Source: Nitrosopumilus sp.
GTDB taxonomy: Archaea; Thermoproteota; Nitrososphaeria; Nitrososphaerales; Nitrosopumilaceae
Reading direction: 5' to 3'
DNA length: 64,000 nt
NCBI GenBank assembly: GCA_963662625.1
Contig: OY759726.1
Location: forward strand, 1,184,001-1,248,000
Shown: piece after piece, positions 10,264 through 46,260 of the stretch
How the letters are laid out: every line of letters begins with the position of its first letter
Numbering within the stretch: the first letter of the stretch is position 1
Position numbers and translations under genes: made by a program
The notes under the pieces: model-generated
The model's input: the letters and a program-made list of their open reading frames with translations, nothing else
The model's database searches: none
What the model was told of the DNA's origin: nothing

Positions 10264-10293
10264 CCTAATAGTCTGTTGCCTAATAGTCTGTTG
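10264..10293. repeat. 15-bp tandem duplication CCTAATAGTCTGTTG x2
   Basis: Exact copies at 10264-10278 and 10279-10293, directly at the IS110 left junction. Confidence 0.95.
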
Positions 10294-10329
10294 AACACAT
10301 GATAACCACCCAGGCGTAGTTGCCCCGAT

Positions 10330-10443
10330 GGATCGACCCCTGGTAGCGCGTGGGCCTGGCGCCCTTTCTGTTGAATGGGGCAATCCGAGCTGCTGTGTCA
10401 CTGGGCTTCGCGCCCTGATAGGTGTGTGCAGCTTCCGATCCGT
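10330..10443 (+). ncRNA. Candidate IS110 bridge RNA (target-binding and donor-binding loops)
   Basis: Two parallel modules GGGC-N5-GCCC-T-N-[7-nt guide]: TCTGTTG (10367-10373) matches the target flank and ATAGGTG (10418-10424) matches the right end plus core; outer stems CCCC/GGGG and AGCTGC/GCAGCT; structure deduced by eye. Confidence 0.7.
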
Positions 10444-10473
10444 CAGACATCCGAAAGGAGGTGATAGGAAAGG

Positions 10474-11565
10474 ATGAGAAAGACAAGCATAGGGATAGAC
10501 ATAGGGAAGAGAAAGTGCGACGCGTGCGTGGTGGACGGGAACGGGAAGGTTCTCGAGAGGGGGCAGTACCCCAACACCCGGGACGGCGCGGCGAAGTTCG
10601 CAGGGGTGATGGCGCGCAGGTACCTGGGCGGCGGCCCCTGCAGGGCCGCCTGCGAGACGACTGGCAACATGTGGAACAAGACGTTTGACGCCTTCGAGGC
10701 GGCCGGGATCGACATCAAACTGGCCAACACGTACAAGATGGCCCTGATAGCCAGGACCGCCAAGAAGACCGACAGGATTGACGCAGAGAAGATAGCGCAG
10801 GTGCTGAGGATGGACATGATACCGGAGTGCTACGTCCCCCCGGGCCACACCAGGGGGATACGCGCGATGGTCAGGCAGAGGGTGAGGCTGGTCCAGGACA
10901 GGACGCGCGTGATAAACCGCGTCCACAGCCTCCTGGACCGCCACGACATCCAAATGGACGCCTCCACCATGCACTCCGAAAAGGCCTTGGGGCAGCTGGA
11001 ATCTGCGGAGCTGGGCTCTGGGCACGACGGGTTGGTCCTGGGCCAGTGCGCCCGGCAGGTGAGGCACCTGACGGAGGAGATCTCCGTGACGGAGGGGCTC
11101 CTCGAGATGGAGGCCGCCCACAACGGTGACGCGAGGCTGCTGGCCAGCATGACCGGCGTCGGCACGTTCACCGCGGTGCTGATGGCCTCCGAGATCGGGG
11201 ACGTCTCCAGGTTCAGGGGGCCAAGGCAGATGGTGTCGTGGGCCGGGCTGTGCCCGGTGGTCTACCAGTCGGGGAACCAGCTGTACACGGGGAGGATCAA
11301 GAAGATCGACTCCAGCAGCCTGGTCAACTGGGCCATGTGCGAGGCCGCGAACACCGCCGTGCGGCACGACGCCAGGATGGAAGCCGTGTATGCGTCCGCG
11401 CGCCGGAGGCACGCGGACAAGCATGGGCCGGCAATCATAGTGGTGGCCCACAAGATGGTCACCATAATGTGGCACATGCTGACCACCAAGACACCCTACG
11501 AGTCCCGCAACGAGAGGCTGTACCGGCGCAAGCTGGCCAGGATGGAGAAGGCGCGCCGGGGGTGA
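10474..11565 (+). CDS. IS110-family recombinase/transposase (DEDD RuvC-like + Tnp20 domain)
   Basis: IGIDIGK, ACETTG, KKTDRIDA, MTGVG and GLCPVVYQSG (catalytic Ser) motifs; GGAGGTGA RBS upstream. Confidence 0.95.
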   Translation: MRKTSIGIDIGKRKCDACVVDGNGKVLERGQYPNTRDGAAKFAGVMARRYLGGGPCRAACETTGNMWNKTFDAFEAAGIDIKLANTYKMALIARTAKKTDRIDAEKIAQVLRMDMIPECYVPPGHTRGIRAMVRQRVRLVQDRTRVINRVHSLLDRHDIQMDASTMHSEKALGQLESAELGSGHDGLVLGQCARQVRHLTEEISVTEGLLEMEAAHNGDARLLASMTGVGTFTAVLMASEIGDVSRFRGPRQMVSWAGLCPVVYQSGNQLYTGRIKKIDSSSLVNWAMCEAANTAVRHDARMEAVYASARRRHADKHGPAIIVVAHKMVTIMWHMLTTKTPYESRNERLYRRKLARMEKARRG

Positions 11566-11609
11566 CCCCCCGCGCTGCCCGCATCCCGGATCGTCTTGCC
11601 AGCGCTAGC

Positions 11610-11616
11610 TATAAAT
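11610..11616 (+). promoter_or_regulatory. Outward-facing TATA box in the IS110 right end
   Basis: TATAAAT in an otherwise GC-rich end; predicted TSS about 11638. Confidence 0.5.
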
Positions 11617-11768
11617 CTCATGCCATGCAACCCAGTCACGGATCGGAAAAACCGCGGGATGCATTGCGGCAACTACGCCTGAGTGGTTAACATAGGTGCA
11701 CAACTGCCAGAAATTGCCGGGTCTAAACAGTTGAACCCCCGGCCCAACCATGTCAAACCGAAAAGGCC

Positions 11769-12911
11769 TTGGATCACGGCCGCGCACCGTCCCCGTTGGC
11801 TGCGACCGACAACGAGAAATACGTCAGGCGCGGGAGGGGCCTGGCTGTGTCGTATGACCCCGGCTGGGAGGACGACCTGAGGGAGGCCAACGCCGGCAAG
11901 GAGGGCGCCCCGTTCAGGTACGCCGGGGCGCTGGTCATGGCCGCCGCCGCGGTGAGGACCTCGCTCGGGGTCCAGTACAGGCAGCTGTCCGGGCTCCTCG
12001 CGGGGATGCTGGGGGGGCACGGCGCGCCGCACTACTCGGTGCTGGCCAGGAGGATGGCGCGCCTCGACGTGGACATCGGCGGGGGAGTCGTCCGCGTCTC
12101 CGGCGGCGGCCAGCCCATGACCCTGCTGGCCGACGCCACGGGCCTGAAGCAGTGCAACCGGGGCGAGTGGATACGGAAGAAGTGGAAGGTGAAGCGCGGG
12201 TTCGTCAAGCTGCACCTGCTGGCCGACGCCGACACGAAGAAGATACTCGCGGCGGTGGTGACCGACGACAGGACGGGCGACTCCCCCATGCTGAAGGAGC
12301 TCCTGGGAACCGTGGCGGGGCCGCGTGGCGGGAAGCCGGACGGGAAGCCGGCGGGGAAGCAGGGCGGGAAGCAGGACAGGCGCATGGCGCTGATCCGCGG
12401 GAAGGCAGCCGCGGCGGGGGATCCCCTGCCGCGCGTGGGCTCGCCCCCGCCCAACCTCCTCGCGAGCGGCGTGGCGCCGCTCGCGCTGCAGTGCGGCCAG
12501 CCGCCCGGCTCCCACGGGGCGCGCCTGATCGCGGACGGGGCGTACGCGTCGCGGGACAACATGCGGAGGTGCCGCGACATGGGCGTGGGGCCTATCATCC
12601 CGGTCAAGGTGGCGTCCACCGCCAGGGGCAAGGGCGCCGGCGGCGCGTGGGGCGAGGCGGTGCGGGACCAGCTGGGGGGCGGCCCGGAGGCGCGCGTCGA
12701 CAGGATGGGCACGAGGGAGAGGGAGGAGAACGTCCGGTACTGGAAGGCCAGGAAGGGGTACGGCAGGAGGTGGCTGATCGAGATAATCATATCGGCGTTC
12801 AAGAGGATGTTCGGGGACCACGTGCACTCGCGCAGGTGGGAGAACATCGTGCAGGAGGTAAGGCTCAGGGTGGCCCAGTACAACCGGTGGGCGGGGGAGG
12901 CGGGGGCGTAG
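11769..12911 (+). CDS. IS5-family DDE transposase (IS903-like group)
   Basis: LLADATGLK, KRGFVKLHLLAD, LIADGAY and YGRRWLIEIIISAFKRMFG motifs. Confidence 0.9.
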   Translation: MDHGRAPSPLAATDNEKYVRRGRGLAVSYDPGWEDDLREANAGKEGAPFRYAGALVMAAAAVRTSLGVQYRQLSGLLAGMLGGHGAPHYSVLARRMARLDVDIGGGVVRVSGGGQPMTLLADATGLKQCNRGEWIRKKWKVKRGFVKLHLLADADTKKILAAVVTDDRTGDSPMLKELLGTVAGPRGGKPDGKPAGKQGGKQDRRMALIRGKAAAAGDPLPRVGSPPPNLLASGVAPLALQCGQPPGSHGARLIADGAYASRDNMRRCRDMGVGPIIPVKVASTARGKGAGGAWGEAVRDQLGGGPEARVDRMGTREREENVRYWKARKGYGRRWLIEIIISAFKRMFGDHVHSRRWENIVQEVRLRVAQYNRWAGEAGA

Positions 12912-13605: not shown

Positions 13606-14601
13606 ATGGGAGATCCAAAATACCCGCGGCGCGTGTGGAAGAAACCGAAGAGGCCCCTGAACTATGAACTAAAGATGGACGAGCTGAAGACGCTCGGCAC
13701 GTTTGGGCTCAGGACAAAGAGGGAGCTGTGGAAGGCGCACACGGAGCTGTCCCGCGTAAGGCACCAGGCACGGTCGCTGCTTGCGCTGAGGCAGGAGATA
13801 AGGCAGGAGAAAGAGCCGATCCTGATGAGGTCGCTCGCAAGAATCGGGCTGGTCAGCGGAGACGCGACCCTGGACGACGTGTTGAACCTGCAGGTAAACG
13901 ACCTGCTTTCCCGCAGGTTGCAGACGATAGTGTCGAGGAAGCTGGGGTTTCAAACCCCGTACCAGGCAAGGCAGGCTGTCGTGCACGGCCACATAATGAT
14001 CGGGGACAGGAAGGTAACCATCCCGTCATACACCGTGACACTGGAAGAGGAAGACGCGATTCGTTTTTCCCCGGAATCCACGATTGCGGAGATGTTGGAA
14101 AAGCACAAAAAGTCAACTGAGGAACCTGCAGAGGCCGCGCCAGAGACGCCGGCAGAGGCCGCGCCAGAGACGCCGGCAGAGGCCGCGCCAGAGACGCCGG
14201 CAGAGGCCGCGCCAGAGACGCCGGCAGAGGCCGCGCCAGAGACGCCGGCAGAGGCCGCGCCAGAGACGCCGGCAGAGGCCGCGCCAGAGACGCCGGCAGA
14301 GGCCGCGCCAGAGACGCCGGCAGAGGCCGCGCCAGAGACGCCGGCAGAGGCCGCGCCAGAGACGCCGGCAGAGGCCGCGCCAGAGACGCCGGCAGAGGCC
14401 GCGCCAGAGACGCCGGCAGAGGCCGCGCCAGAGACGCCGGCAGAGGCCGCGCCAGAGACGCCGGCAGAGGCCGCGCCAGAGACGCCGGCAGAGGCCGCGC
14501 CAGAGACGCCGGCAGAGGCCGCGCCAGAGACGCCGGCAGAGGCCGCGCCAGAGACGCCGGCAGAGGAGAGTAAACAGGACGACAAGCCTTCACCGAACTA
14601 A
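13606..14601 (+). CDS. rps4: 30S ribosomal protein uS4 with long acidic repeat tail
   Basis: MGDPKYPRRVW...RRLQT...QARQAVVHGHI; C-terminal (PAEAAPET)n. Confidence 0.97.
   Translation: MGDPKYPRRVWKKPKRPLNYELKMDELKTLGTFGLRTKRELWKAHTELSRVRHQARSLLALRQEIRQEKEPILMRSLARIGLVSGDATLDDVLNLQVNDLLSRRLQTIVSRKLGFQTPYQARQAVVHGHIMIGDRKVTIPSYTVTLEEEDAIRFSPESTIAEMLEKHKKSTEEPAEAAPETPAEAAPETPAEAAPETPAEAAPETPAEAAPETPAEAAPETPAEAAPETPAEAAPETPAEAAPETPAEAAPETPAEAAPETPAEAAPETPAEAAPETPAEAAPETPAEAAPETPAEAAPETPAEAAPETPAEAAPETPAEESKQDDKPSPN
14128..14565 (+). repeat. Perfect 24-bp tandem repeat x18 (GCAGAGGCCGCGCCAGAGACGCCG)
   Basis: Identical units with no spacers, in frame within rps4. Confidence 0.97.
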
Positions 14602-14650
14602 CTACAAGGAAAGATTATCAACAAATAGCCCCAAAAAGAAGAGTTTAACC

Positions 14651-45810: not shown

Positions 45811-45940
45811 GCCACTCCTAACGTGGCGCTCTCTTAATCTGTGTTGCCTTCGGCCCTCCAAAAGCTGCCCGGATCCGGCGCCCGGGGCACGTCCCGGCGG
45901 GCCGCGCGCGGATCATGGGCGCGCCTGGCCGCCGCGCGCG

Positions 45941-46217
45941 CTAGCGCCCCCTCCCGGGCACCTTCCAGTTCCCGTCTACCACGCACGCGTCGCACTTTCT
46001 CTTCCCCATGCCTGTCCCAATGCTTGTCTTTCTCATCCTCTCCTGTCACCTCCTTTCGGATGCCTGGCGGGCCGGAAGCTGCACACGCCCACCAGGGCGC
46101 GAAGCCCAGTCACACGGCAGCCCGGATTGTCCCATTCAACAGAAAGGGCGCATGCCCACACCGTACAAGGGGCCGGTCCATCGGGGCAACTACGCCTGGG
46201 TGGTTATCATGTGTTCA
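45941..46217 (-). mobile_element. Truncated relic of the same IS110 family (left end + 31 codons of transposase)
   Basis: Reverse complement aligns with 10292-10565; reads MRKTSIGTGMGKRKCDACVVDGNWKVPGRGR*, with the catalytic Asp changed to Gly. Confidence 0.95.
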
Positions 46218-46260
46218 AGATGGTCCAATATTTAACACAGTAACTACGCCAACAGGGCCG

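Follow-up and report, generated by a model that had tools for sequence, protein, structure and literature searches.

A probable bridge RNA gene of mixed layout in the left end of an archaeal IS110-family element

Bridge and seek RNAs, the guide RNAs of insertion sequences (IS) of the IS110 and IS1111 types, were discovered in 2024, and to our knowledge every one characterised to date is bacterial. The analysis presented here concerns a stretch of 64,000 nucleotides (nt) from the archaeon Nitrosopumilus sp. (assembly GCA_963662625.1, contig OY759726.1, positions 1,184,001 to 1,248,000), which we call the window and number from its first letter. The window holds an IS110-family element of 1403 bp at 10294-11696 (+), and in our reading positions 10327-10444 (+) are the gene for its bridge RNA (seekRNA), working by the mechanism proposed below; we give this reading a probability of about 0.88. 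An initial annotation, made from the letters of the window, had proposed at this place an archaeal bridge RNA with a target and a donor loop beside a transposase, and had called the enzyme a programmable recombinase. The reading as a bridge RNA is supported by covariation of the structure, by permutation tests of guides against flanks, by the agreement of the left donor guide with the right end of the element, and by a covariance model built from other genomes; the enzyme is probably such a recombinase, to judge by the family to which it belongs. Archaeal IS110 recombinases are on record (662 in Vaysset et al., bioRxiv 10.1101/2024.06.21.599552), and bridge RNA diversity has been surveyed at scale (86 models and 32,190 RNAs; bioRxiv 10.64898/2026.10.21.760802). 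The literature searched, in listings and main-text passages, yielded no description of an archaeal bridge RNA, and the large surveys (Durrant et al. 2024; bioRxiv 10.64898/2026.10.21.760802) may already contain this RNA family unnamed. What is new here is an archaeal member of the bridge RNA family with a mixed layout; the bridge RNA type itself and the IS1111-type guide order were already known.

According to the main-text passages on which we draw for all published systems, the bridge RNA of IS621 is encoded in the left end, upstream of the recombinase gene (PMC11208160, PMC11208158), and forms two stem-loops containing internal loops, of which the first serves the target and the second the donor (Durrant et al. 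2024; Hiraizumi et al. 2024). Each loop takes the bottom strand as its partner for the left half and the top strand for the right half. The present element shares this arrangement. It differs from IS621 in having the left guide on the 3' side of the loop rather than the 5' side, in its core (TG, or AG in some relatives, as against CT), and in its subterminal repeats, which measure 22 nt here and 2-3 bp there. In the homologs of our element, each 5'-strand guide is followed by a linker that is invariably T, and therefore no covariation of handshake guides like those of IS621 was seen (by eye). The proteins are only remotely similar: among PDB entries, our transposase comes closest to two bridge recombinases, ISCro4 (E = 4e-12) and IS621 (E = 5e-11). 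The comparison with the IS110 group proper (IS621 and ISEc21 type) is mixed, in that the long left end with the RNA is shared but the repeats of that group are absent or 2-3 bp long. ISEc21 resembles our element further in having an upstream non-coding region (NCR) and a target inside another IS, but the top-strand match of its seekRNA lies 3' of the bottom-strand match, the opposite of what is found here (PMC11187229).

IS1111-family elements with seekRNAs (ISEc11, ISPa11 and ISKpn4) share with our element a DEDD transposase, long subterminal repeats, and the use of repeated elements as targets, here the terminal repeat of another IS. IS4321 and IS5075 are said to target the terminal repeats of Tn21-family transposons. 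The subterminal inverted repeats of the IS1111 group are 7-17 bp long in the literature. The order of the guides is shared as well: in IS1111-family seekRNAs the top-strand match stands 5' of the bottom-strand match, the opposite of the IS110-type ISEc21 (Siddiquee et al. 2024, PMC11187229), a difference repeated in the table of a review, and in our element the top-strand guide likewise stands 5' of the bottom-strand guide. The initial annotation had remarked that the order appeared reversed relative to IS621; the left guides do lie on the 3' strands of their loops, but the order is not a novelty, since it is the published IS1111-type order (PMC11187229). The differences from the IS1111 family are that its RNA is encoded downstream of the transposase gene, whereas ours lies upstream, and that the host of our element is archaeal. 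In rare IS1111-type elements the NCR lies upstream (ISMtsp17) or there is one at either side (ISHvo10, ISAcp5), with RNAs that are undescribed in that source (PMC11187229). In its guide order and its long subterminal repeats our element thus resembles the IS1111 family, but the upstream position of its RNA is of IS110 type. A GLxPxxxxSG motif is present in the transposase, but ISCro4 has it too, so that the motif does not separate the IS110 from the IS1111 clade.

The limits of the element come from homology among copies and from empty sites. The genome (1.86 Mb in one contig) has eight full-length copies, 84-100% identical, and additional fragments. Homology among the copies starts at 10294, within the left junction TAGTCTGT-TG|AACACATG, and ends at 11696, within the right junction AACATAGG-TG|CACAAC, so that a TG core stands on both sides (10292-10293 and 11697-11698). 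The uninterrupted target, TAG(T/C)(C/T)TGT-TG-CACAACTGCC, is found elsewhere in the genome in 7 of the 11 sites checked that carry the same IS end. Therefore the element is 10294-11696; it entered another IS at a TG core within that IS's terminal inverted repeat, and the target and donor assignments given below are correct. The neighbouring IS is multi-copy and has a DDE_Tnp_1 transposase, encoded by the open reading frame (ORF) 11769-12911. Two sister copies, B and C, are 97% identical to the window copy and sit in the same kind of target; as read from their flanks, copies C, D and E were inserted in the other repeat of the DDE IS or in the repeats of its short relatives, which are like miniature inverted-repeat transposable elements (MITEs). 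Insertion sites of the IS110-family element were seen in both terminal repeats of the DDE IS and in the repeats of its MITE-like derivatives of about 75 bp. Within the element, the left subterminal inverted repeat TAACCACCCAGGCGTAGTTGCC (10303..10324) faces a right arm at 11668..11689, the two 22-nt arms matching at 21 of 22 positions, and such repeats are present also in most homologs having both ends. The left end is 180 nt long and contains the RNA; the right-end NCR, 131 nt long, shows no guide-like match to the target beyond one chance 6-mer.

The RNA gene comprises two parallel modules, whose component strings, as quoted in the initial annotation, were found in place by a sequence check (Table 1). 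Both are enclosed by a basal stem, P1 (10327-35 paired with 10436-44), that the initial annotation did not list. The two strands of each internal loop carry one guide each: in loop 1, a right target guide (RTG) on the 5' strand and a left target guide (LTG) on the 3' strand, and in loop 2, a right donor guide (RDG) and a left donor guide (LDG) in the corresponding places. The LTG is identical to the left flank and core and would therefore pair with the bottom strand. The LDG is identical to the right end (RE) of the element followed by the core. Three of the four guides had been recognised from the sequence. The remaining one, a TGGT (TTGT in a relic copy) set against ACAA of the target, was in the wrong register; comparison of homologs defines the RTG instead as the eight bases listed in Table 1.

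Table 1. Features of the element and its surroundings in the window
Feature	Position	Strand	Remarks
Left flank	10264..10293	+	Two tandem copies of CCTAATAGTCTGTTG; the second bears the left target TCTGT and the core TG (10292-10293)
Bridge RNA gene (probable), about 118 nt	10327..10444	+	Basal stem P1 enclosing two stem-loops; from covariation and covariance model
Target-binding stem-loop (loop 1)	10337..10380	+	Outer stem CCCC/GGGG (10337-40, 10377-80), internal loop, hairpin GGGC/GCCC 10352-64
Right target guide (RTG) GTAGCG-CG	10343..10350	+	Loop 1, 5' strand; register set by homologs
Left target guide (LTG) TCTGT-TG	10367..10373	+	Loop 1, 3' strand; 7/7 with left flank and core
Donor-binding stem-loop (loop 2)	10388..10433	+	Outer stem AGCTGC/GCAGCT (10388-93, 10428-33), internal loop, hairpin 10403-15
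Right donor guide (RDG) TGTGT	10394..10398	+	Complementary to IS positions +2..+6, ACACA (10295-10299)
Left donor guide (LDG) ATAGG-TG	10418..10424	+	Equal to RE end and core (11692-11698), 7/7
Conserved GGAGGTGA	10457..10464	+	10 nt before ATG; seen in most homologs (uncounted)
DEDD transposase/recombinase, 363 amino acids	10474..11565	+	Pfam PF01548 and PF02371
TATAAAT box, promoter-like	11610..11616	.	Direction and function putative
Right target CACAACTGCC...	11699..11718	+	Rest of the terminal inverted repeat belonging to the neighbouring IS (DDE transposase, ORF 11769-12911)
Decayed second RNA gene copy	46063..46183	-	Inside truncated relic 45911-46218; covariance model 85.7 bits

The structure was examined across homologs. 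When 401 genomes of the phylum were searched at the protein level, 19 proved to have the transposase, and a scan with one genome per species gave 80 loci, mostly from metagenome-assembled genomes (MAGs) titled Nitrosopumilaceae, Nitrosopumilus, Cenarchaeum, Nitrososphaerales and Bathyarchaeia, with one from Methanosarcinales. Their upstream regions align on an invariant AGCTGC. Loci were dropped for having no DBL (donor-binding loop) anchor (7 of 80), for failing the stem parse (7 of 81, which left 74), for want of the boundary motif (3 of the 74), and for want of an RE end or RTG (20 of the 74); alignment A2 omits the mis-parsed L105 and L122, and alignment A3 omits the window and seven long-hairpin sequences. 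Over 56 non-redundant sequences, a five-helix structure has 89.5% of its cells paired, and 20 of its 27 pairs have changed on both sides. The covariation score is 0.372, as against 0.146 for shuffled alignments (0 of 500 reaching it) and at most 0.131 when the partners are slid. A covariance model for which 48 sequences were taken, all from genomes other than this one, matches the window at 10326-10447 with 121.4 bits (E = 8e-38). The same model finds 13 places in this genome and matches 29 of 151 genomes of the family and 11 of its 27 genera, a tally that includes an unpublished genome, G448. One of the places in the window lies within a relic, 45911-46218 (-), which consists of a left end and about 125 nt of the transposase gene.

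Comparative tests of this kind cannot tell an RNA fold from a DNA fold, and one could imagine single-stranded DNA from the end of the element in the role of pairing partner instead of an RNA, in the manner of the guide sequences of IS200/IS605-type elements. We consider this hardly credible: the enzyme is a DEDD/RuvC-like IS110-family recombinase and not an HUH transposase, and its solved relatives carry their guides on RNA.

The assignment of the loops as guides of a bridge RNA comes from their agreement with sequences outside the RNA. For the target, the initial annotation had equated TCTGT-TG with the left flank and core and had suggested that homologous left ends be examined for covariation of guide and target; this was done, and it holds for both strands of loop 1. 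The left boundary of each homolog was placed by a rule independent of the guides, namely 5 nt before a conserved ATG(A/T)(A/T)A and about 40 nt from the first stem, which worked in 71 of 74 loci; the LTG was taken as the 7 nt preceding the linker and 3' outer stem of loop 1. Over 46 distinct 7-mers, the LTG matches the five non-core flank positions at a mean of 3.98, as against 1.39 +/- 0.16 under permutation (0 of 10000), and 37 of the 46 match at 4 or more. LTG and flank agree with an identity of 0.61-0.89 over -7 to -3 but only at background level at -8 and -9; the signal is limited to -7..-1. For the RTG we took the 8 nt that precede, on the 5' strand of loop 1, the invariant T linker, and compared them with the reverse complement of the core and right flank, the right end being placed by the subterminal repeat and the loop-2 guide, neither of which involves the RTG. 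The mean for 42 distinct guides is 4.0 of 6, compared with 1.71 +/- 0.18 when permuted (0 of 10000); 28 of the 42 match at 4 or more positions, and the match is a full 8 of 8 in seven loci (L082, L084, L086, L101, L133, L135 and L138). Near-identical copies within one genome show guide and flank changing together, as in L076 and L078 (TAGTTTG) and L079 (AACTTTG); further contrasts of this kind are L084 (ACTTCTG) with L102 (ACATATG), and L113, L115 and L117 (CCAAATG, CCATGTG and CCAGATG).

The donor guides of loop 2 follow the ends of the element itself, as had been suggested for ATAGG-TG and, by a short match of TGTGT to ACACA, for the opposite strand. Seven forms of the LDG occur (ATAGGTG, ATAGATG, ATGAGTG, ATAGGAG, ACAGGTG, ATGGATG and ATAGAAG). 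The LDG is found exactly at the element's own RE end, beside the right repeat, in 47 of 54 loci in a search that allowed one mismatch and is partly circular, and exactly in 22 of 35 when RE ends are set by the repeat alone. For the RDG, agreement with element bases 2-6 over 26 types is 3.69 of 5, as against 2.29 permuted (0 of 10000). The core covaries too: four loci (L068, L069, L073 and L108) have AG in place of TG, coherently in the LTG, in the LDG and at the two junctions. The window copy agrees with itself, its LTG fitting its own flank and its LDG its own RE end, each at 7 of 7 positions, and its ORF is intact. All four guides covary with flanks or ends, in a conserved structure beside an intact recombinase gene.

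The RNA region lies directly upstream of the conserved GGAGGTGA and the ATG, and is probably part of the transposase leader. The stems and guide-like strings might then be a 5' leader of the transposase mRNA, or DNA sites for a protein, serving translation control or end binding and not guidance. Such a role gives no reason for loop 1 to change with both flanks or for loop 2 to track the element ends, and homologous systems use such loops as guides (PMC11208160; PMC11187229, in the passages drawn on); we regard it as very unlikely.

We propose that the bridge RNA would act as follows. The RNA would fold into a basal stem closing two stem-loops, each broken by an internal loop. Loop 1 would read the insertion site, and loop 2 the joined ends of the excised element, with TGTGT pairing with the IS start and ATAGG-TG with the IS end and core. 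The DEDD recombinase and the RNA would then synapse the circular donor, RE-TG-LE (LE, left end), with the target, the terminal inverted repeat TAGTCTGT-TG-CACAAC of the DDE-type IS and its MITE relatives, and strands would be exchanged at the TG core. That the RNA is a product of the + strand and is bound by the recombinase, and that the reaction has this chemistry, is suggested by the family. A + strand RNA, unlike one from the minus strand, would fall into the pairing class of IS621, in which the left half is paired by its bottom strand and the right half by its top strand. The functional RNA could conceivably come from the minus strand, as the counts of G-U versus A-C in the stems do not settle the strand and the direction of a promoter-like box in the right end is not fixed. 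We think there is little chance of this, given that such an RNA would have the top strand as its partner on the left and the bottom strand on the right, which is the reverse of the class to which IS621 and the seekRNAs belong, and that RNA and transposase gene have the same sense in all described elements.

Several observations weigh against a bridge RNA gene working in this way. The folding energy of the single sequence, a 184-nt stretch, is no better than that of shuffles (z = -0.09), and a scan with the covariance models of Rfam gave no relevant family, only a chance snoRNA match (18.8 bits, E = 4.3). Folding of one GC-rich stretch of this length is uninformative, and the test was therefore moved to homologs. 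No RNA sequencing run was found to contain the locus. Among the homologs, the sequences are related to one another, so that the permutation counts overstate independence; the stem counts, 65 G-U versus 63 A-C, do not discriminate the strand; and 9 of the 46 LTG types match at 3 or fewer of the five positions. Some of these low matches come from the boundary rule, which is off by at least one in L103, L125 and L128, and others are real. The window RTG fits the reverse complement of TG and its own right flank CACAAC at 5 of 8 positions only, and that of the MITE-type repeats CGCAAC/CGCGAC at 6 of 8. The relic in the window has the LTG TCTGTTG beside the flank CATCT-TG, a mismatch, and in copies D to H the LDG is ATGGGCG while the RE ends are ATAGGTG or ATGGGTG. 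In copy G (G000:C1:1699624-1701046), which is 85% identical to the window copy, the guides are CGCCATG and GTATGGTG, yet the flanks are of A type, and the guides match neither. The two loop-1 strands of copy G, GTATGGTG and CGCCATG, could form 6 bp with one another; the discord could be traced neither to trans-mobilisation nor to a later mutation. A search for predicted targets of the variant guides in the decayed copies G, J, L, M, N and P gave no repeated site, and only the A-type guide prediction recovers the IS and MITE repeats.

Such discord raises the question of whether the RNA family is real but the window copy a dead relic, one that no longer moves or has been moved only in trans by its sister copies. 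Decay has affected 5 of the 8 full copies: ORFs are broken in E (91 amino acids), G (70) and H (322), the start codon is lost in F and H, and the LDG and RE mismatch in D to H. Besides the poor RTG fit of the window copy, a stop at codon 364 is peculiar to it, the frame of B, C and D continuing there to 402 amino acids. Against this stand its 363-amino-acid ORF, intact over both Pfam domains with the invariant residues kept, the full match of both LTG and LDG, and the two 97%-identical sisters in the same kind of target. We therefore consider a dead copy unlikely, though less so than the other alternatives. In copies D to H (at 476k, 1063k, 18k, 1699k and 1508k), the core of the donor guide is CG, and RNAs and ends have drifted apart.

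The transposase ORF spans both of the domains matched in Pfam, namely DEDD_Tnp_IS110 (PF01548, 6e-28) and Transposase_20 (PF02371, 6.5e-22). Residues D9, E61, D100, D103, S266 and G267 are invariant in a five-protein alignment, and the window copy keeps the DEDD and SG columns. Its stop occupies 11563-11565; the sisters B, C and D have CGG there and run into the right end.

At the left junction of the window copy the 15-mer CCTAATAGTCTGTTG stands twice in tandem, without a difference; its unit is made up of 5 nt of flank and 10 nt of the target repeat up to the core. Aberrant recombination and replication slippage are both possible origins. A junction of another kind was seen in sequencing data, where a single contig (run X1, depth 21.6, 67 nt on the shorter side; one of four runs, all of one study) joins 11699 to 10292. 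The junction reads RE-TG-C|TG-LE, three bases longer than a precise circle junction, and was not found in the assembled genome. A circle, two copies in tandem or the variant of a different strain could account for the contig. The contigs of the four runs carry no information on transcription.

Of 50 distinct RE tails, 18, all belonging to the clade with long right ends, have a TATAAA or TTTAAA at a distance of 82-88 nt from the RE end. About 25 nt beyond the box is a conserved GGCACGGA-CGGAA-like motif that resembles, by eye, the reverse complement of the RNA 3' tail. In the window the corresponding resemblance is between CACGGATCGGAAAA (11637-11650) and the reverse complement of the tail TTCCGATCCGT (10433-10443). 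The box may be a promoter directed outwards, from which the RNA and the transposase gene would be reached only in the circular form of the element.

Relatives may extend further into the archaea. Among plasmid records, the best match to the transposase is in an element of a Halobellus plasmid (NZ_CP134948.1, L141; 33.9% identity, E = 7e-46). By eye, this element has the same layout (700-900 and 2090-2115), with a left end starting AATCC-ATGAAAATCCC and a right end terminating in TTTTCAT-AGG-AG; the upstream region has a guide-like string, ATAGGAG, equal (by eye) to the RE end with an AG core, and an IS5-family gene lies nearby. The covariance model R1 gives no significant match on L141, its best score being 9.8 bits for a short stem only and that of the LE region 7.1 bits (E = 0.16); the L141 RNA is too diverged for this model. 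One may tentatively suppose that these elements form an archaea-wide lineage (Nitrosopumilaceae, Nitrososphaerales, Bathyarchaeia, one Methanosarcinales MAG and, by eye, a haloarchaeal plasmid) that is a third architectural type, in which IS1111-type guide order and long subterminal repeats go with an upstream RNA in a closing basal stem, and in whose Nitrosopumilaceae clade the right end supplies a complete archaeal promoter of TATA type, able to drive RNA and gene only once the ends are joined in the circle. We find this extension possible but doubtful. If true, it would provide a living, tractable archaeal clade in which the proposed descent of Nop5 and C/D-box guide ribonucleoproteins from IS110-like ancestors could be tested.

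The locus represents a well-delimited archaeal family with four guides mapped, a natural range of guides, and two cores, TG and AG. The guide RNA explains why the element is located in the terminal repeats of another IS and its MITEs. The family is a starting point for testing programmable recombination with archaeal enzymes, allows one to ask how such elements are transcribed without the bacterial split promoter, and supplies material on the proposed link between IS110 recombinases and Nop5.

Motifs like those of K-turns and C/D boxes were looked for in the alignments by eye and rejected, as the UGAUGA-like string belongs to stem P1 and the Bathyarchaeia members lack it. Elsewhere in the window, the ORF 13606-14601 starts like ribosomal protein S4 and has long C-terminal PETPAEAA repeats, with a period of 24 nt (about 14029-14628).

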